Shown here: one piece after another, positions 7,005 to 62,186 of the stretch
Numbering within the stretch: the stretch's first letter is position 1
Layout of the letters: each line of letters begins with the position of its first letter
Source of the DNA: Eledone cirrhosa
Taxonomy: Eukaryota
Reading direction: 5' to 3'
NCBI GenBank assembly: GCA_964016885.1
Contig: OZ024747.1
Location: 54,622,001-54,686,000 of the forward strand
Length of the DNA stretch: 64,000 nt
The notes under the pieces: model-generated
What the model saw: the letters and a program-made list of their open reading frames with translations, nothing else
What the model was told of the DNA's origin: nothing
Database searches by the model: none
Made by a program: the position numbers and the translations under genes

Positions 7005-7035
<31 letters not shown>

Positions 7036-20402: not shown

Positions 20403-20444
<42 letters not shown>

Positions 20445-20448
<4 letters not shown>

Positions 20449-20646: not shown

Positions 20647-20698
20647 ATATGTATATATATATATATATAGTTATGTAATAAACAACATAAGGCAATTA

Positions 20699-27452: not shown

Positions 27453-27454
27453 CC

Positions 27455-30400: not shown

Positions 30401-30488
30401 AACACCACCAACAACAACACCAACAACACACCAACAACAACACCAACAATGACACCAACAACAACGCCGACAATAACACCAACAACAA
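27455..30488. repeat. (CAA/CAC) cryptic satellite with higher-order duplications
   Basis: AACAACACC-based units with recurring AATGACACC, AACGCC and ACCCTC variants; the 633-aa and 558-aa ORFs are artefacts. Confidence 0.9.
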
Positions 30489-30615
30489 CTTTATTTTTAT
30501 CGATCCTGTGAGGGGGAAAGGCAAAGCTAACCTCGGCGGGATTTGAACTCAGATCATAAAGGGCCGTAACTCTATGTTACAAAGCATGGTGTCCGACGCT
30601 CTACTGATGCTGCCA
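30489..30615 (-). mobile_element. SINE family 1, 3'-truncated
   Basis: SINE head and body on minus; left arm of a larger inverted duplication. Confidence 0.8.
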
Positions 30616-30841
30616 TTCGATTCGTTTTCAAGCAAACAGCCTCATTGCGGTATGTTTTTTAGGTGACCATCACCATACCTTTGTTCTACAGAAGAGAGAT
30701 ACACTCTCTTGACAAGGGTCAATAACCCCAACACAATATTATTCTCTATTGTTTCTCTCTGTCACTGCTAGAACACAAGGCTGGCGATGGTCATCTAAAA
30801 AACAATTCGTAGTGAGTCTGTTTGCTTGAAAACGAATCGAA

Positions 30842-31050
30842 TGGCAGTATCAGTAGAGCGTCGGACACTATGCTTTGCAACATAGAGTTACTGCTCTTTA
30901 CCTTCTAAGTTCAAATCTGGCCGGGGTTAACTTTGCCTTTCATCCTTACGGAGTCGATAAAATAGAGTACCAGTCACGCACTGGGGTCGATTTAATCGAC
31001 TTTCTCCTCCCCCAAATCACTGGCATTGTGCCTTATAAGAAACAATTATT
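30842..31050 (+). mobile_element. SINE family 1 copy
   Basis: TGGCAGTATCAGTAGAG...GTTCAAATC...GGCATTGTGCC..AGAAACAATTATTATT. Confidence 0.85.
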
Positions 31051-31054
31051 ATTC

Positions 31055-31247
31055 GCGGTGAATTGGCAGTATAGGTAGAGGGTTAGCCGCCATGTTTTCC
31101 TGCATAGTTACATCCCTTTACGATCTGAGTTCAAATCCCGCCGAGGTTAACTTTGCCTTTCATCCTTACGGGATCGATAAAATAAAGTACCAGTAATGTA
31201 CTGGGTAATTTGCTGGCCTTGTGCCTAAAGTAGAAACAATGATTATT
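31055..31247 (+). mobile_element. SINE family 1 copy, tandem behind the previous copy's ATT tail
   Basis: GCGGTGAATTGGCAGTATAGG...GAGTTCAAATCCCGCCGAGG...GGCCTTGTGCCTAAAGTAGAAACAATGATTATT. Confidence 0.85.
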
Positions 31248-31907
31248 CGATATAACACGCATACTCTATGTCAGAGCAAGAAACCAAATTCTAATTTTGT
31301 TTTTAAATAAAAATAATTTAAAAAAATAAAATAGAAGAAAATGTATAAACTTGTTAAAATGTTTTTATTATCTGCTACCAGGTTTTTTTAAAGTGTTTAG
31401 GGATTTTTGCTTTGTTGGTTTTGTCACATTTAATTTCAAGTACTATTGTGAGAGACATGAAATTGTGGGACCTTTCTGAAATATAATGATGTTACGATAA
31501 ACTCTGATGGCTACAGTTGATACTGATGTAGTAAGGTGGCGGTGGAAGTAGTGATGGTGGTGGTTGTGGTTTTGTTGGTGGTGGATTTGTTGTCGGGAGA
31601 TGCTACGGTTGTAGTAGTGGTTTTGGTTATAGTGGTGGTGGTGGTATCAATGAAGGTGGTGTAGTTCGTGGTGATGGTGGTATTAGTTATGGTGGTTGTG
31701 CTGGTGGTTGTGGTGGTGGTATCAATGAAGGTGGTGTAGTTCGTGGTGATGGTGGTATTAGTTATGGTGGTTGTGCTGGTGGTTGTGGTGGTGTAGTTTT
31801 GGTGGTGCTGGTGTTTGTGGTGGTGGTAGCTGTGGTGGTGATGGCTGTGGTGGTTGAATTAGTGTAGGTTATAGTAGTGTTAGTGGTTGTTTTAATGATG
31901 TTTATGT

Positions 31908-32096
31908 AATAATTGTTTCTACTTTTGGCAGAAGGCCTGCAATTAACCCAGTGTATTACTGGTACTTTATTATATCGACCCTGTAAGGATGAAATGCAAA
32001 GTTAACGTCGGCGGGATTTGAACTCAGATCATAAGGGTCCGTAACTCTTTACTGCAAAGCATGGCGTACGAACTTCTACCGATACTGCCAATCCAC
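31908..32096 (-). mobile_element. SINE family 1 copy
   Basis: Same consensus on the minus strand. Confidence 0.85.
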
Positions 32097-34149: not shown

Positions 34150-36990
34150 AACATCATCATCATCATCATCGTCATCATCATCATAATCGTCATCATCATC
34201 ATCATCGTCATCATCATCATCATCCTCGTCATCATCATCACCTTCATTGCCATCATAGCCATTATCATAATCATCATCATCATCACCATCACCATCACCA
34301 TCACCACCACCATCACCATTATCACCATCACCATTACCATCACCACCATCACCATCACCATCACCATCACCATCATCGCCATCACCATCATCATCATCAC
34401 CATCACCATTACCACCATCACCATCACCATCATCGCCATCACCATCATCACCATCACCATCACCATCACCACCACCATCTTCGCCATCACCATCATCATC
34501 ACCCTCACATCACCATCATCGCCATCATCATCATCATCATCACCATCACCATTACCACCGACCCCATCATCACTATCATCACCATCGCCATCACCATCAC
34601 CACCACCATCACCATCACCATCATCCCCATCACCATCACCATCATCATCATCACCATCACCACCATCACCATCACCATCACCATCATCACCATCACCATG
34701 ACCATCATCACCATCACCATCACCACCATCATCATCACCATCACCATCACCATCATAGCCATCATCATCATCACTGTCATCATTACCATCATCACCATCA
34801 CCATCAATATCATCGCCATCATCATAATCATCATCACCATCACCATCACGACCGCCCCCATCATCACCATCATCACCATCGCCATCATCATCATCATCAC
34901 CATCACCATCACCGCCACCCCATCACCACCATCATCATCACCATCACCATCACCACCACCACCATCACCACCATCACCACCACCATCACCACCACCATCA
35001 CCATCACCACCACCACCACCATCACCACCATCACCACCACCATCACCACCACCATCACCATCACCATCACCATCACCATCACCACCACCATCAACACCAC
35101 CATCACCATCACCACCACCACCACCATCACCATCACCACCACCATCACCATCACCACCACCATCACCATCACCACCACCATCACTATCACCATCACCATC
35201 ACCACCACCATCACCACCACCACCACCATCACCATCACCACCACCATAACCGCCACCCCATCACCACCATCATCATCACCATCGCCATCATCATCATCAT
35301 CACCATCACCATCACCGCCACCCCATCACCACCATCATCATCACCATCACCATCACCACCACCACCATCACCACCATCACCACCACCATCACCACCACCG
35401 TCACCATCACCACCACCACCACCACCACCATCACCACCATCACCACCACCATCACCACCACCATCACATTCACCATCACCATCACCATCTCCATCACCAC
35501 CACCATCACCACCACCATCACCATCACCACTACCATCACCATCACCACCACCATCACCACCACCATCACCATCACCATCACTATCACCATCACCATCACC
35601 ACCACCATCACCATCACCATCACCACCACCATCACTATCACCATCACCACCACCATCACCACCACCATCACCATCACCACCACCACCACCATCACCATCA
35701 CCATCACCATCACCATCACCACCACCATCAACACCACCACCACCATCACCATCACCACCACCATCACCATCACCACCACCATCACCACCACCATCACCAT
35801 CACCATCACCATCACCACCACCATCACCATCACCACCACCATCACCATCACCACCAGCATCACCACCACCACCATCATCACCATCACCACCACCATCACC
35901 GTCACCATCATCACCATCACCACCACCATCACCATCACCATCACTATCACCATCACCATCACCACCACCATCACCATCACCATCACCACCACCATCACTA
36001 TCACCATCACCACCACCATCACCACCACCATCACCATCACCACCACCACCACCATCACCATCACCATCACCATCACCATCACCACCACCATCAACACCAC
36101 CACCACCATCACCATCACCACCACCATCACCATCACCACCACCATCACCACCACCATCACCATCACCATCACCATCACCACCACCATCACCATCACCACC
36201 ACCATCACCATCACCACCACCATCACCACCACCACCATCATCACCATCACCACCACCATCACCATCACCATCATCACCATCACCACCACCATCACCATCA
36301 CCATCACCATCACCACCATCATCATCACCACCCCCATCACCACCACCACCATCACCACCACCACCACCACCACCATCACCATCACCATCACCACCATCAC
36401 CGTCACCACCACCATCACCACCACCACCACCACCACCACCATCACCACCACCATCACCATCACCACCACCATCACCATCACCATCACCATCACCACCACC
36501 ATCACCATCACCATCACCATCACCATCACCATCACCATCACCATCACCATCACCACCACCACCACCACCACCACCACCATCACCATCACCACCACCATCA
36601 CCATCACCATCACCATCACCACCACCATCACCACCACCATCACCACCACCACCACCATCACAACCATCACCATCACACCATCACCACCACCATCACCACC
36701 ACCATCAGCACCATCATCACATCACCATCACCACCATCACCATCACACCATCACCACCACCATCACCACCACCATCACCATCACCACCACCATCACCATC
36801 ACCATCACCATCACCACCACCATCACCACCACCATCACCACCACCACCATCACAACCATCACCATCACACCATCACCACCACCATCACCACCACCATCAC
36901 CATCAGCACCATCATCACATCACCATCACCACCATCACCATCACACCATCACCACCACCATCACCACCACCATCACCATCATCACCGTCG
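34150..36990. repeat. (CAT/CAC)n 2.8-kb cryptic microsatellite
   Basis: In-phase CAT/CAC triplets; an internal ~363-bp duplication (35580 vs 35944). Confidence 0.9.
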
Positions 36991-37396: not shown

Positions 37397-37436
<40 letters not shown>

Positions 37437-37470
37437 TATTATTATTACTATCATTATTATTATTATTATT

Positions 37471-37985
37471 CGTGAGGATTGCCCCGCCCTCTTCCTTTAG
37501 CCGGGAAGGGCAGGCAGTTTTTATCTGTCTGGTGGCCATGGCGAAAGAGATAGTATGGTGGACACGTTTGAAAGGGCTGAAGACGAGCACTTACCTGTTC
37601 GGTGATGCCCTGATTAACTTTTTCAAATTTCATTTGAAAAGGAAAATCAGGGTAGAGGGGGAAGTGCTCTCTTCCCAGCATTTTGTTGAAAGATGGGTGA
37701 GAGAAGCAAGTATGTCTCTGAGTATGTGTCTGTAATTTAAAGGTGGAAAACTAGGAGAGGGCACTTGCCCTGGTGGTCAGGGTCACTGTGGCTTTTTAAT
37801 GGGCTTTCTCCACGAATGTCCCTCGGAAGTCTCCCCCCTATTGGGGAATATTTTCATTGTTCTATTATTACATCCTCTGTTTCTTGTTTTTTTTACACGC
37901 AGAAAAGTCTATTTATACCGCCCTGTATTGTCCTGTACTGTCCTTAATGTCTACTTTATGTGAACCCTTGTGGTTAATAAAGAAA

Positions 37986-37987
<2 letters not shown>
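37471..37987 (+). mobile_element. 5'-truncated copy of the Tx1 element at 44972-50873, in (TTA)n
   Basis: Highly similar to 50348-50873 with a short internal deletion; (TTA)n on both sides. Confidence 0.95.
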
Positions 37988-38054
<67 letters not shown>

Positions 38055-38055
<1 letters not shown>

Positions 38056-40009
38056 AGCTGCATTTATCTTGCTTTATGTTCATACGAGTTATCACCAAGT
38101 CACAACCAGTGACCTCAAGAGACAACAAGGTCCGCCATGTTCAAAAAAGAACATACATACTCACACATGCATCTTTAGGTGTTTAGACTTGTGATGTACT
38201 TATATTGACAGAATCTTCCTTAGTATATGGGCAGTTCCCATTAGTACTATCTTTTGTATTTCTCCTATACGCGGGTTTCCTGGGACTTGCGATAAGTAAT
38301 CATTAGACCCCTTAGGTATCATTCCTAGAGCGCCTACAACCACTGGTATTGTTTTAGTTCTCAATTTCCACATTTTTCCAATTTCTATCTCCAGGTCCTT
38401 ATACTTGCTCAATTTTTCAAATGTTTTTATAGATACATTCTTGTCTATTGGAACGGACATATCAATTAGCAGGCATACCCTCTTTTTAAAGTCCTTCAAT
38501 ATTATATCAGGTCTATTTGCATCTATTTTTCGGTCTGATTGGATGCTAAAGTTCCACAAGATTGAGATGTGATCTTTTTCAAGTATGGGAGGTGGTTGAT
38601 GCTCCCACCAATTCTTTTGATGGGGCAGGTCAAAATGCTTACACATTATCCAATGTATGTATTGTGCAGCTCTGTCATGCCTGTTTAGGTATTCGGTTGG
38701 AGCTATAGGACTGCACATTGAAATTATATGGTCAATGGTCTCTGGTTGTTTTTTGCATACACGGCATAATGGGCTGCATCCATTTTTTATTATGTTGGCT
38801 TGGTAATTTTTTGTTGGCAGACACTGATCTTGTGCTGATATAATCAATCCTTCAGTCTCCGATTTCAGTCCAGAGGATGCCAACCACTGATGGGTTAAAG
38901 TTTTGTCAACATCAAGATTGTTAGCTCGCTCTGGGTATTTTCCATACAGAGGCTTTTCTTGCCATTTCTTAGCCAGTTTCTGTAGCAGTTCTTTCTTTGC
39001 AGTTACTTTTACCTGTTTTGCTTTTTCTGTGTTTTCCATTTCAGCAGTAAATGGGACTTCTGAAATTTGTAGTCCATTACTGTATCTTTGTGCATCTTTT
39101 GTAATGGAATATGATCTTTTGATGCTTTCGTGTTTCAAAACGAGTTTGATCATCCAATCATGTGATTCCCTTAGATATGTAGATAATCCAATTGTTACAG
39201 TTTTCAACGCAATGTCTAACTGGATTAACCCACGTCCTCCTTCTTTCGTAGGGAGATATATTCTATCTATATCTGCCTTAGGATGATGCATTCTGTGCAT
39301 GGTTAAGGATTTTCGAATTTTTGTATCGAGCCTACGGATCTCTGTGCTTGACCAGTTGATGACATTGTAACTGTAGGTTACTACTGGTATGGCAAGCGTG
39401 TTTATGGCATTGATCCTATTCCTTACATTCAATTCCGTTCTTAAGATTGCTCTTACTCTGCGGTAACATTCCTTCCTTATCCTTTCCCTCATTGTCGAGT
39501 GCTTGATTCCGTCTCCTTCACAAACACCTAGATATTTGTAAGTTTTTTCTTGATCAAGTTCTCTTATCACGTTCCCCCGATCAAGATTAATGTCTGAACT
39601 CTTCAGCAGCTTTCCTCTGGTGAACGTTGCTTTGGCGCATTTATCTAGTCCAAACTCCATGTTAATGTCATCACTGAACTGCTCCACAGTGGATAATAGC
39701 CCTTGCAATTGTTCATCATTTTTTGCAAATAGTTTCAGGTCATCCATGTAGAACAGGTGATTAATGGTTTTGTCATAGACTTTATATCCATGTTTTGTTT
39801 CATTGAGCATTTTACTTAATGGTATAAGTGCGATGCAGAATAAAAGCGGTGATAAAGAGTCACCCTGAAAAATTCCACAATTAATATTAGCTTCTCCAGC
39901 TTCCAGTGATTTTGTTTCACTATTCAAAAGGAGTGTCGTTTTCCATGTCTTCATACTGAATGACAAAAACCTCCTGACAACGGGGGATATTTTGAAAATC
40001 TCTAAACAA

Positions 40010-40012
<3 letters not shown>
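38055..40012 (-). mobile_element. 5'-truncated Dong/R4-clade non-LTR retrotransposon (family B)
   Basis: Begins mid-RT directly after (TAA)n; ~145-bp 3' UTR ends in (TAA)n. Confidence 0.9.
38200..39966 (-). CDS. Partial RT plus CCHC zinc knuckle plus restriction-like endonuclease (Dong/R4)
   Basis: GIFQGDSLSPLLF, YMDDLKL, CRVC-x8-H-x4-C, RHD, NRPDI...IDMSVP...KYKDL; frame stays open upstream to the truncation at ~40012, so there is no true start codon. Confidence 0.92.
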   Translation of the reverse strand: MSFSMKTWKTTLLLNSETKSLEAGEANINCGIFQGDSLSPLLFCIALIPLSKMLNETKHGYKVYDKTINHLFYMDDLKLFAKNDEQLQGLLSTVEQFSDDINMEFGLDKCAKATFTRGKLLKSSDINLDRGNVIRELDQEKTYKYLGVCEGDGIKHSTMRERIRKECYRRVRAILRTELNVRNRINAINTLAIPVVTYSYNVINWSSTEIRRLDTKIRKSLTMHRMHHPKADIDRIYLPTKEGGRGLIQLDIALKTVTIGLSTYLRESHDWMIKLVLKHESIKRSYSITKDAQRYSNGLQISEVPFTAEMENTEKAKQVKVTAKKELLQKLAKKWQEKPLYGKYPERANNLDVDKTLTHQWLASSGLKSETEGLIISAQDQCLPTKNYQANIIKNGCSPLCRVCKKQPETIDHIISMCSPIAPTEYLNRHDRAAQYIHWIMCKHFDLPHQKNWWEHQPPPILEKDHISILWNFSIQSDRKIDANRPDIILKDFKKRVCLLIDMSVPIDKNVSIKTFEKLSKYKDLEIEIGKMWKLRTKTIPVVVGALGMIPKGSNDYLSQVPGNPRIGEIQKIVLMGTAHILRKILSI

Positions 40013-40061
<49 letters not shown>

Positions 40062-40147
40062 GTTATTGTTATTCCTTGAATCTCAGTCATTGATGTTGGT
40101 TAACTGGAAAGTCCGTTGGATTGAATATCAAGCCACTACCTGCAGCC

Positions 40148-43100
40148 TCAGATATTCAGGACGTATCGGAGGGTTCTTGCCGTTCCAAGCAAGCATGCCT
40201 TTTGAAGCGTTCCAAAAAGCGTGAAGGGGCCGATTTTCTTTAACCATCCCTGGAAACCTTTGGAGATAGTCCCCAGTGCGCCTATGACAATCGGGATCAC
40301 TTTGACTTCATGGCAGTTCCAAATCCTTTTCACCTCCCACTTTAGGTCCTGGTATCGGTTAATTTTCTCCCTCTCCTTCTCTTGCACTCTCGTGTCGAAC
40401 GGGCAGGCCACATCCACAATCAGGCACGATCTTTTTTCTTTGTCCACAACCACCAGGTCAGGTCTATTGTGTTCCAGTTTTTTGTCCGTCTGTATCCTAA
40501 AATCCCACAGCACCTTCACCTGACTGTTCTCCATCACCGCCTCTGGCCTATGCTCATACCATTTCTCAGAATGTGGTAGATTGTTTACTTTGCACAGGTG
40601 CCAGTGGATCACCCTGCCCATCACATCGTGTCTCCAGCCCTTATAGTGGGTCTGGGCTAGGTGTTTACACTCGGACACAATGTGAGCCACAGTCTCCTCT
40701 CTCTCTCCACAGATCCTGCACAGTGGGCTAGCCTCCTCCTTGTAGATATGGTGCTTCAACCACTTCGTTTTGAGGGCCTGCTCCTGCGCAGCCATTAGCA
40801 TTCCTTCTGTAGCCTTTTTGAGGTCTCCTCTTCTCAACCAGTTCCATGTCTGTGGATCTCTAAATTCAGTTTTCTCAAAGAAGGTACTATGAAGGGATTT
40901 TCCCTTAAGGCTGCTCTTCCTCCTTGATGTTATTTCCTCCTTGGGTATCCCCTGGCCTACTGTCCCCTCCTTCAGTACAGCTCTGAGCATTGGCTCCTTA
41001 CTATAGGTCATGTATTTGTATAGGTTGTTTTTCTCCATCTGAACACAGTCCTCTATGCTGATAAGACCTCTTCCACCCTCAGATCTCCTTAGGTAGAGTC
41101 TATCGACATCACTCCTCTTGTGGAACATGTTGTAGATAGTCAATAGCTTCCTAGTCTTCCTATCCATTTCTTTTTGTTCAGCAACATTCCATCTCAGAAT
41201 TCCCGCACTGTACCTAATAATAGACACAGCTCGGGAATTTACTGCGCTTATGGCATTTCTGCTGTTCAGATGTGACTTCAATACGCTCCTTACTCTCCGA
41301 ATGTATTCAGTTCTTAACAATTCCTTCATTTTTTTGTTCTTTATGCCATCAGCCTCCAGAACGCCCAAATACTTGTATCCTTCCTCAGAGTCAATTTCCT
41401 TTATCATCTCACCTGTTGGTATCTGGATCCCGTTACTTCTGCTCAACCTACCCCTCCTCATCACAATGACTCCACATTTACCAATACCAAACTGCATACA
41501 TATATCACTGCTGAAAATACGGACAGTGTCAACAAGCACATCCAACTCCTTCTCACTTTTCCCGAAGAGCTTAAGATCGTCCATGAAGAGGAGGTGATTG
41601 ATGGTAAGCTCTCCCCTTCCCAACTTGTATCCTGCTCTCACTTTTCGCAGCATAATGGTCAAGGGCATCAGGGCAAGGACAAACAACAGAGGGGACAGGC
41701 TATCTCCCTGGAAGATACCTCTCTTGATCTTCACGCTTCCCAAGGATACTCCAGTTGATGTCAACTCTGTCTCCCAGGACCCCATACTCCTGCCCAGCAA
41801 CTGTCTGATGTTATCTGCCACCCTGAAGATCTCCAGGCTTTTGGTGATCCAGGAATGAGGCACCATGTCAAATGCCTTTCTGTAGTCTATCCATCCCATG
41901 GCAAGATCAGTGTGTCTCCTCCTGCAATTCCCCATTACCATCTTATCAATAAGCAACTGGTCCTTTGTACCACGTGACTTCTTTCGGCATCCTTTCTGTT
42001 CGTCCGGCAACAAGTTGTTTGTGTGGAGGTGATGGTAGATTTCCTCAGACACAATGCTCGTCAACAGTTTCCACATTACGGGCAGACATGTGATAGGTCT
42101 ATAGTTGGTAACATCATTACCCTTGATTCGGTCTTTCATTATCAGAACTGTAGTACCTTTTGTCAACCACTCTGGCACCTCACCCGACACCAAGCAGTCA
42201 TTGAACATGGCCGTCAGCTTCGGGTGGAGGGATGTTAAATGTTTAATCCAATACCCCTGCACACCATCTGGGCCTGGTGATTTCCAGTTGGTTAGTTTTT
42301 TGGCTTGCCCCTTAAGAGTTTCAACTGTGATACTCAAATCAGTCTGTTGCTGTGCCTGCTCACCGATCTCCCTCTGTACTGTCTCAATCCACCCTGCCTG
42401 GGCATTGTGTCTAACATCCTGCTCCCATATTCCTCTCCATAATGTTTTAGCTTGTTCCGCCCCAGGGATCAAGTCGTTGCCTCTTTCTTTCCCCTCAAGC
42501 TGTCCAAACAGCATCTTCTGGTTGTTGTCGAACATGCGGTTCTGTTTATACTGACTGACTTTGTTCTCGTATCGCCTGATTTTGGCACTCTTTGCTACAA
42601 TGCGTTGCTTCAATTCCTCTATGATAATATTTAGCTTTTTACTCCTAGTTTTGTATTTTATTTCCAGTCTATTTTTAGTGCCTATGTTTTTTAGTGTCCC
42701 ATTCAGTAGTGACTCAAGCTTTCCTATGTCATTTCTCATTTCCCCGATTTGCCCACTCAGTCGCTTCTTCCACCACGGCTCTGCTCTTTCTTGTCTGTTG
42801 TTTCCTCTCGCTTTTATACCAAGTAGTTTCCTCACCGTATTTGCTGTTGCTTTGAGGATATTGTTGCACTGGTGAAGACTCCTCGCCTCAAGGTATGGGA
42901 TGACTTTGTTTACCTTAGCTGTTGTTTCTTTTAACTTTTTCCTGTCTACAAATCTTAGGTTCATAGGTCTCCCACTATCATTGTTCAACTCATCTACCAC
43001 TAAATTTAGGATGTCAACCGAATCTTGTCCTAGCCCGTCAGCATTCATCTCCTCAGTGGCCGTATCTCTGTTCCAGGTATTATTTATCTCAGTATTCAGA

Positions 43101-43540
43101 TCATTGTCGGCTTCGGGTGGTTCCTCCGTTCTCAGGACCTCCTCACCTTCATTTCCCGCCGGCTCGCTTGTCTGGCATACTACACCCGCCATCTCCAAGC
43201 CATTCTCTCTGCTCAGTTCCTCCAGTTCCAGCTCGCTTATCCACCCATTAGTTCTTATTACCCGAGCCTGCCCGGCCAATTTTTGTTCATCTAATTTAAA
43301 TAAACCAATCTCGTTCCAGATGTTATGCATCCGTCTCCTGTAGCCCCTCTCCTTGGGGTTACTTTTCAGGTAGCATTGCATAACAGTTCTATTCAATTCT
43401 TTCGTCCAGTTGGTTCTGGCCCCTTTCCTTCTTCTTCTTCCTCCAACATCAGCAGTATTTGGTTGACAGTCAGGTTCCTGCTGCTGAGCCAGGGGGCACC
43501 TGTTGGGTGAGAGTCTGTCACATGACGTTCTAGTCTCCAT
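40148..43540 (-). CDS. 1130-aa RT / restriction-like endonuclease polyprotein (Dong/R4)
   Basis: N-terminal WTKELN..VM.CY...GYRRRM..IW; KSPGPDG, NYRPITCL, GIFQGDSLSP, FMDDLKL; CRICGEREETVAHIVSEC; RHD; NRPDLV...VDVACP...KINRYQDL; no stops. Confidence 0.95.
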   Translation of the reverse strand: METRTSCDRLSPNRCPLAQQQEPDCQPNTADVGGRRRRKGARTNWTKELNRTVMQCYLKSNPKERGYRRRMHNIWNEIGLFKLDEQKLAGQARVIRTNGWISELELEELSRENGLEMAGVVCQTSEPAGNEGEEVLRTEEPPEADNDLNTEINNTWNRDTATEEMNADGLGQDSVDILNLVVDELNNDSGRPMNLRFVDRKKLKETTAKVNKVIPYLEARSLHQCNNILKATANTVRKLLGIKARGNNRQERAEPWWKKRLSGQIGEMRNDIGKLESLLNGTLKNIGTKNRLEIKYKTRSKKLNIIIEELKQRIVAKSAKIRRYENKVSQYKQNRMFDNNQKMLFGQLEGKERGNDLIPGAEQAKTLWRGIWEQDVRHNAQAGWIETVQREIGEQAQQQTDLSITVETLKGQAKKLTNWKSPGPDGVQGYWIKHLTSLHPKLTAMFNDCLVSGEVPEWLTKGTTVLIMKDRIKGNDVTNYRPITCLPVMWKLLTSIVSEEIYHHLHTNNLLPDEQKGCRKKSRGTKDQLLIDKMVMGNCRRRHTDLAMGWIDYRKAFDMVPHSWITKSLEIFRVADNIRQLLGRSMGSWETELTSTGVSLGSVKIKRGIFQGDSLSPLLFVLALMPLTIMLRKVRAGYKLGRGELTINHLLFMDDLKLFGKSEKELDVLVDTVRIFSSDICMQFGIGKCGVIVMRRGRLSRSNGIQIPTGEMIKEIDSEEGYKYLGVLEADGIKNKKMKELLRTEYIRRVRSVLKSHLNSRNAISAVNSRAVSIIRYSAGILRWNVAEQKEMDRKTRKLLTIYNMFHKRSDVDRLYLRRSEGGRGLISIEDCVQMEKNNLYKYMTYSKEPMLRAVLKEGTVGQGIPKEEITSRRKSSLKGKSLHSTFFEKTEFRDPQTWNWLRRGDLKKATEGMLMAAQEQALKTKWLKHHIYKEEASPLCRICGEREETVAHIVSECKHLAQTHYKGWRHDVMGRVIHWHLCKVNNLPHSEKWYEHRPEAVMENSQVKVLWDFRIQTDKKLEHNRPDLVVVDKEKRSCLIVDVACPFDTRVQEKEREKINRYQDLKWEVKRIWNCHEVKVIPIVIGALGTISKGFQGWLKKIGPFTLFGTLQKACLLGTARTLRYVLNI

Positions 43541-44112
43541 TTCACCGTTATTCGAACTGTTTATGTTCGATATTTAAACACTCTTATCGAGGATTGGCGA
43601 ATGTATGTTTACATAGCCATCTGTGGATCCGCCATCCCACTTGGCCCTTGTGTGGCATTATCACCACGCTGTATACGGACACACATAAACAAACAAACAC
43701 ACGGGCAGAAAGGGCCCCAAAAATGAATAAGCATAAGTTTCATTGTAATGTAGTATTCGAATGTCTGACTTAGTTTTTGTTTTTTAAGTTTTACTTTTTC
43801 CCCCCTCTTCTCTGTCCGTCCGCCTGCTTCTCTCTTCATTCTTATTTTCTTTACGTTTTTGGGGTTTCTTTTTTTGTTTTTGTTTTTCTCTGTTTTTCTC
43901 GTTTTTTACTGTTGTTGCTGTGCTGCTTTTGTTGTTTGTTTTTTCTTTTTTCTTTTGAGTCTATCTATATATTTTGATGCCTTCCTCTTTGTTAGTAGTA
44001 GGAATTCTATAATGTGGAAGTGGTAGCCAGCAGAGACTGGCGGCGTTGGCGATACTGAGACAGTGGTGGTGGTGATGTCGATACCGAGGCAGTGGTGGCG
44101 GTGATGCGACCG

Positions 44113-44752
44113 TATTACTGTAGTGATGGTGCTGTAGCGGTGGCAGCAGCAGTGAAGGAGTCAGGGGGTGGTGGCGGCGGTGATGGGATAGTGGTGGTAA
44201 TGATGGCCGTAGTGAGCGGTGGCGGTGAAGGTGAAAATGCTGTTGTGTTTAGTGTACACAGATGATGGGGTGGGTGGTGTATCTAGTTTCTGGTGTTGGT
44301 GAGTTTCGCTGTCCTATATAGTGTAGCCAGAGGAGAGGAGGGGGAGGGGGGTTCTTCTTCTTCCATTTATAGCCATTTTATTTTTTTTTTGGATATACAG
44401 TGTACAATACAAAGTTGAATATTTGAATATTTGAGCCATATTACTGTAGTGATGGTGCTGTAGCGGTGGCAGCAGCAGTGAAGGAGTCAAGGGTGGTGGC
44501 GGCGGTGATGGGATAGTGGTGGTAATGATGGCCGTAGTGAGCGGTGGCGGTGAAGGTGAAAATGCTGTTGTGTTTAGTGTACACAGATGATGGGGTGGGT
44601 GGTGTATCTAGTTTCTGGTGTTGGTGAGTTTAGCTGTCCTATATAGTGTAGCCAGAGGAGAGGAGGGGGGGGGGGTTCTTCTTCCATTTATAGCCATTTT
44701 TTTTTGGATATACAGTGTACAATACAAAGTTGAATATTTGAATATTTGAGCC
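44113..44752. repeat. ~320-bp tandem duplication in the putative Dong 5' leader
   Basis: 44113-44437 and 44439-44752 are nearly identical, differing mostly in homopolymer and short-repeat lengths. Confidence 0.9.
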
Positions 44753-44918
44753 TTATAACAATATATTTTGGGTCCGAATTTTTTTGGGGCTCAAGCCGGG
44801 TGCTTTACGTAGCATTTGTACTAAGAGTTGTTATTTCACAAATGATTTAAATATGTTAAAAATTCAAAACTTACGGGAGCGATTTCATGACCTCCGTCAC
44901 CTCGTGCGTCTTCTTCCC

Positions 44919-44971
<53 letters not shown>

Positions 44972-45180
44972 GGCGACCTACTAAGTAAATCGTATCATCG
45001 TGAGTTCCGCAAAGGTTTGTTATTTCCGTTTGTTAAAAATTGTCATTTATGGAAAATTTCATTGTTAACTGTTTATAAGCGCACATACATTGTTTTCCGA
45101 AAAGGACACCCAAAAAGATTGGGGCCTTGTGCCCAAAATTTTAACTTTTATTATTATCCAAAAATTTCTTTGAGAAAAAA

Positions 45181-47175
45181 ATGGCTAATTCCCCTCTGCA
45201 CGAAGCAGCTGAAAGCCTTCCTCACAAAATAACACCTCACACCGACACCACCATTGTAAATGTTACTACGTTTGCCAACACAAAAAAAAATATAAGCAGT
45301 AGCAATATTTTTAATTTGTCTCAGGCAGACATTCATTTCCCGCCATTACCAATGACTACAGGTGTTAAAGCCTCCACCACCACCACCACCGCGACAACCA
45401 CCACCCCCACCACCACCGCGACAACAGAAACAAAAGAAGAAAAAAATAAATTAACTCGTGATGTCGAAATGAAATCAAGCAAAATGGACTCTTCCGCACC
45501 AAAGACGAATGACGTCACCACCACCACAACTGAAACAAAAATTAAGATTAACACAAATAACGATAGCAACAACAACAACAGTGACATTATAAAACCGACC
45601 CTCAGTTTCGCCATCGTAGCAAAACAATTCGAAGCGTTCACGGTAACTCAAGAAGATTTAGAAAATGCCAAACAAATGGTAAAGAAAGATGGGTACAGGG
45701 TCAGCCTCACTACCCCACCTAATAAAATGGAGCATCGGCGCCTGTGCACCGTGTCGTATAGAACAATAAATGTAAAATCGCGCCGAGTGGAACGGGCATC
45801 CGAGTCCCAAATCCAAAACGCTTTGGGACATGTGTGGGCAAGAAAAACCCACATCAGACGTGGGCAAAAGTATGGAACCGTGGATATGTTCTTTGAAACA
45901 CCAGAGGAGGCTAGAGAACACTCCATGGCCCCATTAAAAAGTGACGACCTCACACTCGTCCCAAGCTATTGTGGCCAGAGACTCGTAAAGATCAGGGTGA
46001 CCCACGTTCCACCGGCCATCGAAATTCCCTGGCTAATAGCGGCTGTCCTCGCCGGCATCGAGGCCAACACGAAAATAATAGCAATAGCAAAAGAAAAGCA
46101 GGAAAACTGGTCCGGATCTGGGATGGAGCTCCTGATCCAAGCGGACCAAAAAAGCATTGAGGAGATCCCAGAGGTAATAGACCTCAACGACGGCAGCCAC
46201 CTCACGGTAATTGTCGAGGGCAGAAGACCTAGGTGTGTCGTTTGTGGTGAAGGAACCCACCTAAGGGCTTTCTGCCCTCAGGCTAAAAGGTTGAGGCCAC
46301 CTCTCCTACCCACCCCAGTGACACAACCATCAACACCACCAGTAGCAGAGATGGCAGCAACAACTGTAGCAGCAACAACAGAAGCAACTATAACAGCAAC
46401 AACCCCAGCAACAGTAGCAAAACCAACACCACTACCACCACCAGCAAAACCAACACCACCACCACCCAACGCTTCAGAGCTAGCACCAGCGCCTACACCA
46501 TCCACCACACCACAACCAAAACTAACGGCTGTGGAGGATTTTCCACTCCCCGGCCTATCACAACTGGAGACAGATTGTGACGACGAGGAGTGGGAAACGA
46601 TATCCGGAAAAAAAAAAAGAAACCAAAAAAGAAAAAATTCTCTTCCTTCCCCCTCCAAAAACAAAATACAGAGGGAAACAAATAAACTAAGAAACAAAAA
46701 AGTTAGGACAGATATGCCACCATCCACACCAGCATCACCAACCCCATCAACCCAAACACCAACACCATTACCATCATTAACTCCAACACCACCATCACCT
46801 ACACCACAAAAGTCACCAAAATGCGAAACAGAAACAAACCCACAACAAACGCAAACAAAACAAAACAACCAAAACGATACACACTACACAGCATTAAATT
46901 TGAACAACAAGCAATTATTACACTACATCCAACACAACACCAGCATCACAGAAAAAGACTACACAACAACCCCAAAATTCACACCACCTCCACACATACA
47001 AATCACTCGCATCACACAGAAAACGTACATGACACTAAAACAAAAATTCCCCAAAGACATCGGACACTTCCGACAAGCACTCTCCAGGAGGATTTATAAG
47101 GACATCCTTCCTGAGGAGGCCACAAGCAGTGAAAAGGATGGAAAAACCGTCCTTCCCCTACGAGAAGTAAGGTAA
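45181..47175 (+). CDS. ORF1 gag-like nucleic-acid-binding protein
   Basis: 664-aa ORF with CCHC knuckle CVVCGEGTHLRAFC, Pro/Thr-rich linkers and basic patch WETISGKKKR. Confidence 0.88.
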   Translation: MANSPLHEAAESLPHKITPHTDTTIVNVTTFANTKKNISSSNIFNLSQADIHFPPLPMTTGVKASTTTTTATTTTPTTTATTETKEEKNKLTRDVEMKSSKMDSSAPKTNDVTTTTTETKIKINTNNDSNNNNSDIIKPTLSFAIVAKQFEAFTVTQEDLENAKQMVKKDGYRVSLTTPPNKMEHRRLCTVSYRTINVKSRRVERASESQIQNALGHVWARKTHIRRGQKYGTVDMFFETPEEAREHSMAPLKSDDLTLVPSYCGQRLVKIRVTHVPPAIEIPWLIAAVLAGIEANTKIIAIAKEKQENWSGSGMELLIQADQKSIEEIPEVIDLNDGSHLTVIVEGRRPRCVVCGEGTHLRAFCPQAKRLRPPLLPTPVTQPSTPPVAEMAATTVAATTEATITATTPATVAKPTPLPPPAKPTPPPPNASELAPAPTPSTTPQPKLTAVEDFPLPGLSQLETDCDDEEWETISGKKKRNQKRKNSLPSPSKNKIQRETNKLRNKKVRTDMPPSTPASPTPSTQTPTPLPSLTPTPPSPTPQKSPKCETETNPQQTQTKQNNQNDTHYTALNLNNKQLLHYIQHNTSITEKDYTTTPKFTPPPHIQITRITQKTYMTLKQKFPKDIGHFRQALSRRIYKDILPEEATSSEKDGKTVLPLREVR

Positions 47176-47209
47176 GTGGTCTTTCCCATCTTTTCCACTC
47201 CTTTTCAAC

Positions 47210-50200
47210 ATGACCTCACTCAGAATAGGCAGCATAAATGCGCGTGGCTTGGGGTCGTCATGGAAGCAGGGCCACCTGCTCAACGACCTAAGGTCACTAA
47301 ACATAGATGTAGTGGCCATCAGCGAGACAAGAATCTCCGAAGCACAGGCTTTCGCACCGATCTTCGGCGGCTACGATGTGTACGCATCTCCCAGCCGTCC
47401 GGGATCGGGGGGAGGAGTAGCTGTGCTTTTTCGGAGAGGGTTGGATCTTGCCATACGGGCCATCTTCCTGGACCCAGAAGGTAAGTTGGTGGTGCTGGAC
47501 GTGACCAGCGGAGACGGGCAAGCTTTCAGGTTAGTGGCCGTCTATGCCCCGACAGGAGCAGGGCGGCATGATTTCTTCCGGCGTCTGGAGACTTTTCTTG
47601 GAACGTCCCGCTCTTTAGTGTTGGTAGGCGACTGGAACGGGATCTTAGATACACGCTGGGATTGTGTGGGATTAGTGGATAGGGAAGGAGGGTGCAAGAG
47701 TCTCACCAACCTGCTCAGACGTTTTGAACTGTCTGACAGGTACCGAATGGATTTCCCGAATGTACCAATGTGGACTTGGACAAATCGCATAGGGTCATCC
47801 AGATCATATCTAGATAGAGTATTTTGTATGGAAATAGATAAGTCTAGCATAGGCTGTCCACAATTCAAGATAGTCAGCTACACGGACCACAAATTCGTGA
47901 TCTGTGTACTTGACTTAGATAGGCTTCATAGGCGAGGACCCGGCTACTGCAAGCTAAATGCGTCCTTACCAGCGCGCAAGGCCTACAGAGACCGGATTAG
48001 CGAACTAGTTAAGCGGGCGCTGACGGGGGCCATCGTCAACAACAAGTGGTGGTTTGCTCTGAAAAGAGCAATTAGAATAGAGTCCATTAGGTTTAGTAAG
48101 ACTTTAGCAATAGAGAAAAATAGAGCAGAGGGAGAACTAGTTAGAAAATTAGATGAGGCGCTTAGCAAGGGCATCGCGACCGACGTGCTTGCGGCGAAAT
48201 TGGCCCTTGACCAATTCTTCAATGCAAAGCACGAAGTCTGCGTTGTCAGAGCTAGGGTGCGTGCTCTCAGACACGAGGGGACGAAAGCCGTTCAATGGGC
48301 TCGAGTGGCGGAGGCGCGTCGTGGCAATAAAGCCACGATCCGGTCTTTGGTGGACCACGACGGGCGCATGCTACTCGATCCCGGTCAAATGTGTGAAGCT
48401 TTTCAGCGACACTTCGCTCAACTGTTCGGGGGCAGTGGCGGGCCGGATCGAGGGATGGACTTCAGTGTCTACCTCGACGGACTGCCGCGGCTTTCGGCCA
48501 CTGAGGCCGAGTGTTGCGAAAAGCCGATAACAACCGCTGAAGTACGGGATGCAATAACTAGTTGCACAAGGGGTAAATCGCCTGGTTTGGATGGTCTGCC
48601 CTATGAACTTTACGTACAAATGCCAAACTTTTTCGGAGGCCTCTTGGCGGACGTCTACTACAACTGGCAACAGAACGGGAGAATTCCCAGCTCTGTGAGC
48701 CGAGGAGCGGTGGCGCTGCTGAGAAAGGATCCGAACAAGGGGGATAACATAGATAATTTTAGGCCCATAACTCTGCTAAACACAGAGTTCAAGATTTTGG
48801 CCAAGGTGCTAGCAAAGAGGTTGGCGCTTGTCGTTGGTGGTCTGGTGGGAGAGACACAGACATGCGCCATTCCCGACAGATCCATCCACGACAACCTCCA
48901 CCTCATGCGATACATCGTAGAGAGGGTAGCTAGGGAACCTGGCAAGGGTGGGTCTTTGATCAATTTAGATCAATCGAAAGCCTTCGATAGGGTCGACCAT
49001 CGTTACCTAGCGGCAGTCCTGAGGGCGGCTGGCTTTGGGCCCGTCTTCAGAGGCTGGATCGCTGCCATGCACAGCGACATCTGCTCTGTAGTGAGAGTGA
49101 ACGGTCACCTTTCGGAACCGTTCAACATCATGCGCTCGGTCCGCCAAGGATGTCCCCTCTCGTCCCTATTGTACGTATTGACTCTCGAGCCATTACTGCA
49201 CAAACTGGAGACGTTGAGGGGGGGTCCCGCGCGAACTAGGATGCGGAAGATCCGTGTCAGCATATGCCGACGATGTCACCGTAGTGGTGTCGAACGCCAA
49301 ACACATCGAGGCGATCGGCACTACACTAAGAGAATACGAAGCGGTGACAGGAGCAATGATCAACCAGGAAAAGTCAGTGGGCCTGCAGCTCGGCACATGG
49401 AGAGGCAGGTCCATGCCGTCCAACAGCGTCGTCGGGCGCTGGACGGACGGACCGGTTAAATTGCTAGGGGTCTGGTTCGGTCCAGACCTCCAGACGGACA
49501 AAAACTGGGACGAGGTGACGAGCAGGGTGGCTTCTCTCACCCAGAAATGGGCCGAGAGGAAGCTATCCCTGAAAGGTCGAGCGGAGGTGGCGAATGCGTA
49601 CATCGCATCCGTCATCTACTACCGCCTGACCGTCGTACCTTGTCCTAAGCCCCGCCTGACTGCGCTGGAGCGTTTGCTCTTTCGCTTCTTGTGGAAGGGA
49701 CGCGCTCCGATGGTCAGGCGGTCCATCTGCTGTCAACACCCGCTACGTGGAGGGCTGGGCATGCCGTGGCTGATGATGCGTAGACTCGCGCTCAGGCTAC
49801 GACATCTCCACCTCTTCCTCGACGGTGATCAGGTGTGGTCGCCGTTTGCAAGACACGTTTTTCCCCAGCTCGTCTCCTTGACGGAGCTGCAGTCCTGGGT
49901 CAAGCGAAGACCGAGAGGGAGCGCTTGGAGACTGGAATGTCTTCAGGCGCTCACAGCCCTCGACCAATCGGGCAATGTGATCGGTGGAAACTCCACCTTG
50001 GCGTTCTATAGGGGATTAGTGGAGGGGAAGAGCGACGACGTACTTGGAGAAACTCTAGGCGTCGACGAAAATCAACTAGCCAATCTCTTCGGAAGGACTT
50101 TCGGGCCGGGGCCTATGGACAACTTCCAGAAATCCCTGGCCTGGCAGTGCTACCGAGGAGCTTTGCCAGTTCGGGATAAACTCTACAGGCATGGAGGTGC

Positions 50201-50630
50201 CGTCAGGCGGGCATGTCCGAGATGCGCACAGGGCGACGAAACCGTCCTGCACGCACTCGTCCAGTGTCCGAGCATTGCTGACTTGTGGGTTTATGTCGAA
50301 CACCTGCTGTCACGTGTAGGACGGATCCAGCTATCAGCTGAGTCCATCGTGAGGATTACCCCGCCCCCTTCCTTTAGCCTGGAAGGGCAGGCAGTTTTTA
50401 TCTGTCTGGTGGCCATGGCGAAAGAGATAGTATGGTGGACACGTTTGAAAGGGCTGAAGACGAGCACTTACCTCTTCGGTGATGCCCTGATTGACATTTT
50501 CAAATTTCATTTGAAAAGGAAAATCAGGGTAGAGAGGGAAGTGCTCTCTTCCCAGCATTTTGTTGAAAGATGGGTGAGAGAAGCAAGTATGGCCCGAATG
50601 AATGGGCCTTCTCTGAGTATGTGTCTGTAA
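47210..50630 (+). CDS. ORF2 AP-endonuclease / reverse transcriptase / C-terminal zinc finger, one +1 frameshift at G7 49218-49224
   Basis: APE motifs SINARGL, AISET, VYAP, GDWN, YLDRV, TDH; RT motifs KSPGLDG, FRPITLLN, DQSKAFDRV, QGCPLS, then YADD in the next frame; CPRC-x7-H-x4-C-like finger. Removing one G gives LRGVPRELGCGRSVSAYADD. Confidence 0.92.
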
Positions 50631-50872
50631 ATTAAAGGTGGAAAACTGGGAGAGGGCACTTGCCCTGGTGGTCAGGGCCACTGTGGTCTTTTAATGGGCT
50701 TTCTCCACAAATGTCCCTTGGAAGTCTCCCCCCTATTGGGGAATTTTTCTTTGTTATTTTATTTCAACCTCTGTTTTTTTACACGCAGAAATGCTCATTT
50801 GTACCGTCCTGTATTGTCCTGTACTGTCCTTAATGTCTACTTTATGTGAACCCTTGTGGTTAATAAAGAAAA

Positions 50873-50915
<43 letters not shown>

Positions 50916-51520: not shown

Positions 51521-51959
51521 CTAATCAACTATTTTTATCCACAAAGAACCAATACTTCCAAGAAAATAATTAAACAAGGAAATATATAGAATATGGCTAA
51601 TAAAACACAACAGAATTTACGTTGAGTAAAATCGGGTTAGTTTGAGCAATATGGATTTTGTTACTGCTAAATATTAACTAATCTTAGGTATTGATAAATA
51701 GAACTAACAGTACATGACATATTAATTCTTTCTATTACTGGCACAAGGACAGCAATTTGGGTGAAAGGAGAAATTCAATGATACAGACCCAAGTATTTAA
51801 CTGGTATTTTGTTTTATCAACCCGGAAAGACGAAAAGGAAAGTTGTCCTCAGCGGGATTTTATCTCAGAACGTAGTAATTCGTGACTAAATAGTGCCACG
51901 GAACAAAGTAATAACAACAATAATATTTTCTTTATTAGCCGGAAGTGTCATACATTAAA

Positions 51960-52146
51960 TAATTGTTTCTATTTTAGGCTCAAGGCCAGCAAATTACCCA
52001 GTACATTACTGGTACTTTATTTTATCCACCCTGTATGGATGAAAGGCAAAGTTAACCTCGGCGGGATTTGAACTCACATCGTAAAGGGACGTAACTCTAT
52101 TCTGGAAAGCATGTCCGACCCTCTACCGATACTGCCAATTCACCAC
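51960..52146 (-). mobile_element. SINE family 1 copy (older copy at ~51725-51880)
   Basis: Same consensus on the minus strand. Confidence 0.85.
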
Positions 52147-52297
52147 CAGTATAATAATGCAGATGATTACCACTACTACTTACCTTAGATTGAGCTCAGT
52201 TGTTTATATATTTTCTGTGTAATATAGCGTGAGGATCTCACGGATATCTTGGACCTCCGTCAGTTCCTAGGTGAGTGTACAAGTTGTTCGAACAACG

Positions 52298-52558: not shown

Positions 52559-53489
52559 TGTCCTTTACTCTTTGCTACTAAGGATCTAGCTGACATTAAT
52601 CTCTTATGTTCTTATGTGCTTCTGAGTTACACTACTCATGACAAAATGTAACATTTTCTGTGACACGTTGACTAATGATTGTATTTGTCCATTTAACAGT
52701 GTTAGGGATAGGATATTGGCGTCTTTCCTCAGCACCTACACAACGCTACAGCTATCACGATTTCTGACGAACATCTGCCAAGAGAAAAGTGCTTATAAAA
52801 GTCGATCAAATTTAGAGGATCTTCTTTTTGTTGTCGGTTAACAGCGCACCACCATCACCATTTCAATTACCCGGGTGGTGTGTTCGCAACTCTTCATTTG
52901 TGTATTCATTTGTTGCAGTAATCTTTCAACAAAGACAGCAAAGTCTAACATTCGTACTCCACCGCTTATCCTGACCAGTTGAGCAAATTACGGTTGGAAG
53001 ACCACACACATTCGACAGAATTCAAACATAGCAATCGGTCATCATGTTCCGTTAAACATCTAATTGTTATTTTATTATGATATCGTATCGCTTCTATTCA
53101 GGACCAAGGAATGGCTTTATGTTCTGATATGTGAGAATCCCCGCAACAGCTCTAACATTCGTTCATCGCTTCGAAGAAGTAGATCAAGCGGTATTTTCAC
53201 TATTTATATGTACGGCGTGATGGCCACATTTTCCAATAGCTTAACTCTCACTCCACATTGAATCAGACCTTCAATATTGCTACCCATAGTTAATTAAAAC
53301 AGAAATTCAAGCAGACACTTTGTATTACTCATCAGAATAAGGAGGTGACTCCAGAAACTTGCTACTTACACAATTAGCTTCAGAAACCTTCACTCGTTCT
53401 GAGAATGTGTTCAATGTCATTTACCTAGTATGCCACGCAGTGAGATCGAACGCGGAGCATTATGATTGTGCTCATATATTATATATAAC

Positions 53490-53701
53490 GATTTCTGACT
53501 TAGGCACAAAGCCAACCATTTGAGAAGGGTATGTCAATTAAATCGAACCCAATTTATTAGTGGTACTTTATTATATAGACCCAAAAAGGATGAAAGAAAA
53601 AAGCTAACCTCGAGGAATTTGAACACAGAATGTAGAGAATCGTAACCAAATGTCAGAGAGCATTTTGTTCGACGCTCTACCAATATTGCCATTCCATCGC
53701 C
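53490..53701 (-). mobile_element. SINE family 1, older diverged copy
   Basis: Recognisable head, B-box, body and tail. Confidence 0.75.
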
Positions 53702-54289
53702 CTTCTAAATTATATATAACAATCTAATGTGTCTAGCATCAAACCTTATGTCAACGACTACCATAACGTTTCTATTGCCGCTACTGAAAATAGCACCAGT
53801 CCCTGTCACACACACCTACCATTAACACAGCTTCATGGCTACCATCCACTCTAACATTATCACTAGAACAACAAAAGCAGCAACAACAACTAAATATATT
53901 ATGTCTCCTATCAACAGAACCGATAGTAGATATTAGCACCAACACCACTACCGCAACTAGCACAACTAGCACCCCCACAACAACAACCAATAACAAAAAC
54001 AGCAACAATTTGTGAATTACAAAAGCAGTTAAACTATCTATTTTAGCCATTGCTGTTTTGAATTACTTTCAAAAGTTCAGTATGATAAGCTCCCTGGCTG
54101 CTCAGCAATATAAGTATATATACACTATGCTACATACATGCATACTTATATATATATATATATATATATATATTTTTTTTATATATACACACAAAAACAC
54201 ATATATATATGTCATGTAACTTTTGATAAATAATAAAACATGCAGAATTTTACCCGAAAAACGTTGGTATACACACGCACATGAAAATG

Positions 54290-54799: not shown

Positions 54800-55620
54800 C
54801 ACTTCTGCTATGTTCAGAATGCTGTGGGGTTGGCGAAATCGTTGAAATGTCTCACAAAAAAGGTAGTGCATTTTCTTCCGGCTCTTCACATTCTGAAATC
54901 AAGATCCGTCTGTCATCCGGAAGGGATCGATAAGAAAATGTATCAGCACCGCTCGGACACTGGGCGACTGCGTGTAGCACAGTTACGAAGTCTGTGGGCC
55001 ATTCGGTCTGATCCGTCTGACAGCATTTCCGTGATTGTAGAATTTATGAATAAGAATCAGTGCTCCCTGGTAAGCACTACCAGTGCAGAAATTTCTTGAA
55101 ATTATTCATAGACTCCGAACGAAAGTCCCCCGATATAGACTCAGTAGTTCTCTCTCTGTCCAAAAATAGTCGGATTGTGGTTTTGTTGCCAGGCTCTGAT
55201 TCAGCCACTCGGATCCATGGAACAGCTTTACTTCTTTCATGGCTTAAAGCACACTCTTTAGCTTTGAAAATGCAACCTTCATATTTCGAAATAAAGAATT
55301 GATCCAGTGTGGCTTTGTTTGGGCTAAACGTGTTCTGATGTTTGTTGTGTTGTCAGTTAGTGGTTGCAGATGTGGCGTTGTTTCAAATGCGTTTGCGTTT
55401 CGTGTGGGTATGTGTTTTGTGTTTTCTGGAGTGGGTGTTTGTGTCTGGAAAACGTGACCCCTGTCGTATTTGCATTCCGGACGTAAAGAACAAGAACGAA
55501 TAACACATGGCATTTTGTCCGATGTTCTATTGATACTGCCATTTTCATGCCCATTTTGGAAGAAAAATAGACAAGTGTTTTACCAACATATGTAAAATCT
55601 CCCCCAGATTCCATCAAATA
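54800..55620 (-). pseudogene. Decayed, internally deleted Tx1 ORF2 relic
   Basis: Minus from 55307: LDQFFISKYEGCIFKAKECALSHERSKAVPWIRVAESEPGNKTTIR vs ORF2 LDQFFNAKHEVCVVRARVRALRHEGTKAVQWARVAEARRGNKATIR; near 54980 TVLHAVAQCPSGAD vs TVLHALVQCPSIAD. Outer limits uncertain. Confidence 0.75.
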
Positions 55621-60085: not shown

Positions 60086-60247
60086 TGGCAAATACCCAGA
60101 GCATTACTGGTACTTTATTTTATCGACCCCATAAGGATGAAAGCCAAAGTTAACCTCGGCGGGATTTGAACTCAGAATGGCAAGGGCCGTAACTCTGTAC
60201 GTCAAAGCATGGCGACCGACCCTCTACCGATACTGCCAAGCCACCGC
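60086..60247 (-). mobile_element. SINE family 1 copy
   Basis: Same consensus on minus, tail truncated. Confidence 0.85.
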
Positions 60248-60409
60248 CCTCACGAAGAGTCTCAATTAATGCTAGCCAGATTTAACAGTCCTAGCATTGG
60301 TCGTTTATTGTTACCGCATGAAATGTTTTGCATACACATGTATATATATTTATATACATACATAACTACACACACGTACACAAAGACACCCACACACATA
60401 TGTATATAC

Positions 60410-60454: not shown

Positions 60455-60825
<371 letters not shown>

Positions 60826-62145: not shown

Positions 62146-62186
62146 GTATACATATATTTGTGCCTGTGTGTATATCAGAATTCTAA

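Follow-up and report, generated by a model that had tools for sequence, protein, structure and literature searches.

Four LINE copies of two types stand in type-specific orientation within one (TTA)n microsatellite of Eledone cirrhosa

The window analyzed here, a stretch of 64,000 nt of Eledone cirrhosa DNA, contains at positions 37397-50915 a 13.5-kb stack of four long interspersed nuclear element (LINE) copies in a row, separated and bounded by five TTA-class microsatellite tracts. From left to right, the copies are a plus-strand 3′ fragment, a minus-strand element (element B), another minus-strand element (element A), and a full plus-strand element. The tracts are (i) tract 1 (37397-37470), an impure (TTA)n that we read as the left remnant of the target and on whose upstream side no LINE end was found within the window; (ii) tract 2 (37988-38054), a (TTA)22 between two 3′ ends; (iii) tract 3 (40012-40073), a (TTA)n with the 5′ end of B on its left and the 3′ end of A on its right; (iv) tract 4 (44919-44971), a (TTA)17 between two 5′ ends, those of A and of the full plus-strand element; and (v) tract 5 (50874-50915), a (TTA)13 to the right of the full plus-strand element. 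A TTA tract is present at every element junction of the stack (8/8), and in the remaining 50,481 bp of the window TTA or TAA tracts of at least 4 units amount to 12 bp, that is, a single (TAA)4 at 7999-8010. The five tracts together hold about 99 units; the longest perfect trinucleotide run in the window is 27, and long imperfect arrays exist. The stack is a real feature, and the original prediction of four LINEs of two clades lying in clade-specific orientation in one TTA microsatellite is borne out by the five tracts and the eight junctions.

The full plus-strand element (44972-50874) is a full-length L1/Tx1-like LINE composed of a 5′ untranslated region (UTR), two open reading frames (ORF1 and ORF2), and a 3′ UTR with an AATAAA signal at 50862. 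ORF1 begins at the ATG at 45181 and carries a CCHC knuckle. ORF2, which extends from the ATG at 47210 to 50630 and contains a single frameshift at a G7 run (49218-49224), encodes an N-terminal apurinic/apyrimidinic endonuclease-like (APE) domain with its catalytic motifs in place, a reverse transcriptase (RT), and a C-terminal CCHC motif. This two-ORF anatomy is that of the L1 group, and the best match of ORF2 in the PDB is human LINE-1 ORF2p (residues 13-673, E 4e-39). Among named relatives, an Argonauta hians protein is the closest (57%), in keeping with an octopod host, and none of the homologue matches found bears a Tx1-clade name; the Tx1 label is plausible in that it would be compatible with the anatomy of the element.

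The plus-strand fragment at the left end of the stack (37471-37988) is a 5′-truncated copy of the same family, which retains the end of ORF2 and the 3′ UTR with the terminus AATAAAGAAATCA. Over its 519 bp, it matches the 3′-terminal part of the full element (50347-50874) at 90% identity, with an 18-bp deletion. The substitutions between the two copies number 7 in 266 positions of the ORF and 19 in 244 positions of the UTR (p=0.009). This higher divergence of the UTR disfavors an origin of the truncated copy by local duplication and favors separate source copies. The deletion in this copy, together with the impurity of tract 1, suggests that the left end of the stack may be the oldest.

The core of element A (40074-43745) holds a single frame of 1141 aa (40148-43573), whereas element B (38055-40011) is 5′-truncated inside the RT and holds a frame of 603 aa (38200-40011) with the YMDD, CCHC, RHD, and RPD..D..K motifs. 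A domain search gave RVT_1 matches in both elements, and the RT, the CCHC knuckle, and the RHD and RPD..D..K motifs are present in both. The best solved matches of A in the PDB are R2 proteins (E 4e-30), to whose structure the RPD..D..K stretch aligns. Both elements have the layout of LINEs with a restriction-enzyme-like endonuclease (RLE), namely a single ORF in which the RT is followed by a CCHC knuckle and a PD-(D/E)xK endonuclease. Because A and B share 39% amino acid identity, they represent different families. The frame of A can be regarded as complete, since the frames of homologues of 1125-1160 aa begin where that of A begins. R2 elements have N-terminal zinc fingers, and Dong elements (R4 clade) are without them; residues 1-420 of A contain no C2H2 or CCHC pattern and, thus, no N-terminal zinc finger. 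At all four junctions of A and B, the repeat reads TAA on the sense strand of the element, as it does in Dong. Neither Rfam nor a descriptor of our own, which is unvalidated, revealed a hepatitis delta virus (HDV)-like ribozyme at the 5′ junction of A, and these methods give a weak negative; folding of the 5′ ends gave no sign of structured RNA (z -0.14 and 0.81), and a three-way alignment of leaders revealed nothing meaningful.

Between the frame of A and tract 4 lie ~170 bp of UTR-like sequence and then a 1.2-kb non-coding leader (43746-44918, minus strand, left boundary approximate), which includes a 325-bp tandem duplication (44110-44444 and 44436-44759, 95% identical). Read on the minus strand, the leader is Pro/Thr-rich and then Lys-rich and is broken by stops. 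One reading considered was that the leader derives from a Tx1-like copy on the minus strand, as its 5′ end; such a copy would be an exception to the orientation rule. This was not supported, the likeness being superficial and both tests non-significant: the DNA likeness to the Tx1-like 5′ UTR was equalled by 16 of 500 shuffles and by 13 of 858 window segments, and, across the three minus frames, 123-190 of 200 local shuffles equalled the protein likeness to ORF1. In three full-length Dong-like relatives of A from other records (L001, L008, and L014, see below), leaders of ~220 to >400 bp begin at a TAA tract, and with these as precedents a captured leader would be the simplest reading for the 1.2 kb of A. 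The leaders of the relatives stand directly after (TAA)n, at 131-350 in L001, 551-970 in L014, and from 3352 onward in L008, and their heads resemble what we take to be tRNA or 5S heads of short interspersed nuclear elements (SINEs). No tRNA or 5S sequence was found in the leaders of L001 and L014 by ARAGORN or Rfam. The three relatives are possibly LINEs that have captured an RNA polymerase III promoter. The leader of A could instead be a one-off fusion, in effect a fused fifth piece of the stack; hence the expectation that the copies lie side by side and are never nested holds for the four coding regions, each of which is free of interruption by another element, and is qualified by this leader.

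The relatives come from a genome-contig search with a 30-row alignment, which returned 27 loci (L001-L027) in bacterial genome records. On the evidence of their microsatellites, LINEs, and eukaryotic rRNA, these loci are most likely eukaryotic contigs inside bacterial records, that is, host contamination. The TAA-class tracts in the 27 loci are all sense to the element (20/20, none antisense; tracts sharing a record are not independent), which upholds, in other hosts, the premise that the Dong-like lineage uses TAA. The A and B lineages supplied 16 3′ ends, 2 of them too short to score; at least 3 TAA units occur within 200 bp of the 3′ end in 9 of the 14 scored, and no such TAA or TTA units occur at any of the 12 3′ ends of the sister group. 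On visual inspection, 8 copies (L001, the second copy of L005, L007, L008, L012, L014, L015, and L021) have TAA directly at or shortly before the 5′ end, and 5 (L003, the first copy of L005, L010, L013, and L026) lack it there; the tandem copies of L005 are joined by TAA. In a quick tree of 49 rows, built with no named Dong, R4, or Rex6 reference, A and B belong to two deep lineages, both with members flanked by TAA, and next to them stands a third group that includes elements inserted in large-subunit (LSU) rDNA; the tree does not fix the branching order of the three. The rDNA-inserted elements are RLE elements 25-28% identical to A that lie in eukaryotic LSU rDNA (L017, L019, and L022, with the position in L022 differing from that in L017 and L019), and we take this group to be R4-like. 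The placement of A and B would fit Dong within the R4 clade.

A second stack (5559-6508, plus strand), 32 kb from the TTA stack, consists of (TCTA)n, a fragment, (TCTA)n, another fragment, and (TCTA)n. The two Tx1-like 3′ fragments (5584-6087 and ~6099-6458, both plus strand) each have (TCTA)n on both sides, the tract between them spanning 6085-6098 and that at the right end 6456-6508. They are ~70% identical to the TTA family at the nucleotide level and 59% and 52% identical in amino acids to its ORF2 C-terminus. Three of the four TCTA-class tracts in the window belong to this stack, and the fourth (14032-14046) has no Tx1-like neighbor. All four Tx1-like 3′ ends of the window share AATAAA(A/G/T)AAA(T/A)C, and the repeat of each begins 6-7 nt past the poly(A) signal. 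In each of the four Tx1-like copies with visible ends (2 in TTA, 2 in TCTA), the same repeat stands at the 5′ and the 3′ junction, and the T-rich strand is sense. Expressed by the target-preference measure of Kojima for Tx1 families, which takes more than 20% of family flanks (passages of PMC4494074), 2/2 TTA copies and 2/2 TCTA copies are flanked, numbers too few for a statement about a family.

These sister families bear on what had been proposed for the plus-strand family, namely that an APE family has converged on the target of Dong. That account is incomplete: because sister families lie in (TCTA)n and likewise have the T-rich strand as sense, the polarity looks inherited within a microsatellite-hopping lineage, and this lineage appears to drift among T-rich repeats, like Kibi and Koshi, rather than to converge on Dong specifically. 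As for a clade-specific orientation as a rule of the family, both TTA copies are indeed on the plus strand, but two copies do not establish the rule family-wide.

The view that the repeat is a target rather than just a tail was supported by TTA at the 5′ junction of both plus-strand copies (2/2) and by tract 4, which, lying between two 5′ ends, must be target and not the 3′ tail of A or of the full plus-strand copy. In target-primed reverse transcription (TPRT), the strand that pairs with the sense 3′ flank of the element serves as the primer. With the sense flanks seen here, A and B would by this rule prime on (TTA)n, the TTA family on (TAA)n, and the TCTA families on (TAGA)n. From this rule and the opposite sense flanks, it would be sound to conclude that the two groups prime on opposite strands. 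The original prediction that the first nicks fall on opposite strands stands in this sense of first-strand priming; the strand choice of the endonucleases is not established by it, because T-A steps occur on both strands and pairing with the RNA tail could make the choice. Cuts at T-A steps would agree with the phases of the Tx1-like junctions, although these are ambiguous inside a repeat.

The full explanation that we favor, with a probability of about 55%, is that the stack arose by four TPRT insertions in one microsatellite, with strand and target set mainly by the endonucleases; it builds on the anatomy, the domains, the repeats at the 5′ junctions, and the TAA polarity of the RLE relatives, all of which were observed directly, whereas we infer the TPRT origin, the nicked strand, the endonuclease as determinant, and the regeneration of the target. 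One (TAA/TTA)n microsatellite would have received four independent TPRT insertions. Two distinct Dong-like RLE families would prime on the (TTA)n strand and so acquire TAA as sense flanks, and an APE-type L1/Tx1-like family, represented by two copies, would prime on the (TAA)n strand and acquire TTA. Each insertion would split the tract and leave repeat on both sides, so that later insertions could come to lie beside, and not inside, earlier ones; such regeneration of the target is consistent with the data. The APE family would belong to a group of microsatellite-targeting families, with TTA and TCTA as the repeats seen here, that radiated locally and always have the T-rich strand as sense. 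The main determinant of both target and strand is most likely the endonuclease of each element, which is the default choice because endonuclease swaps move specificity between SART1 and TRAS1, where it is named as the primary determinant (passages of PMC7265360).

Several observations weigh against this explanation: (i) the TTA family is known from 2 copies, both in the same tract; (ii) two degraded minus-strand Tx1-like internal fragments (52628-53196 and 54930-55316, the latter internally deleted) have no TTA or TCTA flank, and their ends cannot be placed; (iii) among the scored 3′ ends of the RLE lineages, 5 of 14 are without TAA and 2 of 14 have 3 TTA units within 200 bp, so that the RLE lineage is not strictly specific; (iv) in the 27 loci, no match to ORF1, the APE region, or the ORF2 C-terminal frame was found that would mark a co-stacked APE element, which leaves the opposite polarity without support outside the window; and (v) the hairpin loop of the APE domain aligns without gaps to that of L1 and with 2 gaps to the Tx1L-graft structure, so that no signature of specificity is seen in this loop of L1-like length.

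The last of these points also bears on the strongest alternative, in which the RNA picks the target. A relaxed APE, for which a loop of L1-like length would be suitable, would cut at T-A steps in both strands alike; a 3′ end able to pair with the (UUA)n tail of the element would come only from a nick on the (TAA)n side, and thus the tail would set both repeat and polarity. T-A steps occur on both strands of the TTA and the TCTA repeats. A switch from TCTA to TTA would then take no more than a tail acquired by read-through of the flanking sequence, and the repeat is likely to be transcribed, given that the four Tx1-like 3′ ends run straight into their own repeat so soon after the poly(A) signal. 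Annealing of RNA to the target has been proposed for SART1 and R1, in passages of the same article (PMC7265360) whose account of the SART1/TRAS1 endonuclease as primary determinant speaks against this alternative. The APE comparison covers the TTA family, the APE domains of the TCTA families lying outside the window. We regard the alternative as possible, with the odds against it. A wider form of it is more doubtful still: a young octopod Tx1-like radiation might switch microsatellites (TTA, TCTA, and perhaps more) through the repeat at its RNA 3′ end, always prime on the purine-rich strand, and share one duplex with Dong strand by strand, which would make it a natural RNA-tail-programmed integrator.

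It is improbable that TTA is only a tail, made by slippage in an untargeted Tx1-like family and then targeted by the Dong-like elements, with chance, tolerance of a gene-free region, or inter-tract recombination accounting for the second Tx1-like copy. Repeat tails of TAA or TGTAA are known at the ends of I and UnaL2 elements (passages of PMC3747384), repeats are abundant in the window, and the surroundings of the stack yielded no host gene. Against this, two chance landings would be needed on a class of sequence that covers ~2e-4 of the remaining window, plus two more in the TCTA stack, and the 5′ cut of the truncated plus-strand copy directly adjoins tract 1, with a 1-nt overlap. That the assembly joined repeat consensus sequences into a chimera through identical TTA tracts is most improbable: every join does lie in an identical simple repeat, and the ORF2 frameshift in the G7 run is at a typical site of sequencing error, but the tracts are just 40-75 bp long, the plus-strand fragment and B each show truncation points and substitutions of their own, and TAA-joined tandem copies recur in the unrelated record L005.

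The arrangement combines two known phenomena, and its component ideas have each been published: the TAA target of Dong, the microsatellite targets of Tx1, insertion with opposite polarity, and convergence of APE and RLE elements. Dong targets TAA repeats (passages of PMC3812793), and the primer given in passages of PMC3774820 implies a sense-strand (TAA)n at its 5′ junction. Elements A and B resemble Dong of the R4 clade (Bombyx mori, Anopheles, and Biomphalaria) in having a single ORF with RT, CCHC, and RLE and in the TAA target. They differ in that two families, 39% identical, occupy one tract, and in that A has a ~1.3-kb leader and no HDV-like ribozyme was detected at its 5′ junction; such a ribozyme is present in B. 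mori Dong (passages of PMC3774820). In Octopus vulgaris, Dong-R4 and L1-Tx1 are listed as recently active (passages of PMC13282606). Tx1-clade insertions in (TC)n, (TTC)n, (TTCC)n, and (TTTC)n are known from Kibi, Koshi, and crocodilian families (passages of PMC4494074). The plus-strand family is like them in being an APE element in microsatellites with T-rich units as written, on the assumption that these are written for the sense strand; the targets here contain A (TTA and TCTA) and are not TC, TTC, TTCC, or TTTC, and the host is a mollusc. Thus, it works like Kibi and Koshi yet is not filed under them.

Opposite polarity on one simple repeat is known from TRAS1 and SART1 of the R1 clade, which insert in opposite directions into the telomeric TTAGG repeat (passages of PMC7265360). 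The likeness lies in two LINE families that share one simple repeat with opposite polarity; the difference is that both of those are APE elements at telomeres, whereas an APE and an RLE type meet here in an interstitial microsatellite. APE and RLE elements that reach one target are exemplified by Keno (Tx1, APE) and Utopia (RLE), for which parallel evolution of one U2 snRNA gene target with identical 3′ flanks is described (passages of PMC4640811). In that case, by contrast, the polarity is the same, as the identical 3′ flanks indicate, and the target is a gene. In the portions of the literature covered, we found neither a Tx1-type family described from TTA or TCTA repeats nor an APE and an RLE element that use a single microsatellite with opposite polarity; such a record may exist in Repbase, in subscription papers, or in the figure and supplement of PMC4494074. 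The passages of PMC5678591, PMC8967140, PMC10294476, PMC3747384, and PMC9115989 likewise do not describe target sites of cephalopod Tx1 elements. What would be new here is the TTA and TCTA targets for a Tx1-like lineage and the combination of the two phenomena, with n=2 copies for the key family. Targeting of microsatellites by APE-type LINEs was described in 2013 as not well understood (passages of PMC3812793). Sister families of ~70% identity at the 3′ end in different repeats, with an unrelated RLE enzyme that would use the other strand of one of these repeats (TTA), provide a comparison that could separate endonuclease specificity from RNA-tail pairing, and the arrangement would help explain the pile-up of LINEs at harmless sites in repeat-rich cephalopod genomes.

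The remainder of the window holds further repeats. A 70-bp minisatellite (22598-24799) comprises 31.5 copies with 88% match within a long C/A-rich region, and long CAA and CAT/CAC arrays extend over 27456-30489 and 34152-36984. A dispersed repeat of 150-210 bp, probably a SINE family, is present in about ten copies with 72-88% identity (9604-9773, 27239-27457, 30836-31258, 31908-32096, 51948-52147, 53485-53703, 60088-60252, 62185-62366, and 63245-63451). A repeat of ~250 bp (6788-7035, 20405-20677, and 60501-60768), which has a long internal inverted repeat and (TA)n flanks, looks like a TA-targeting miniature inverted-repeat transposable element (MITE).

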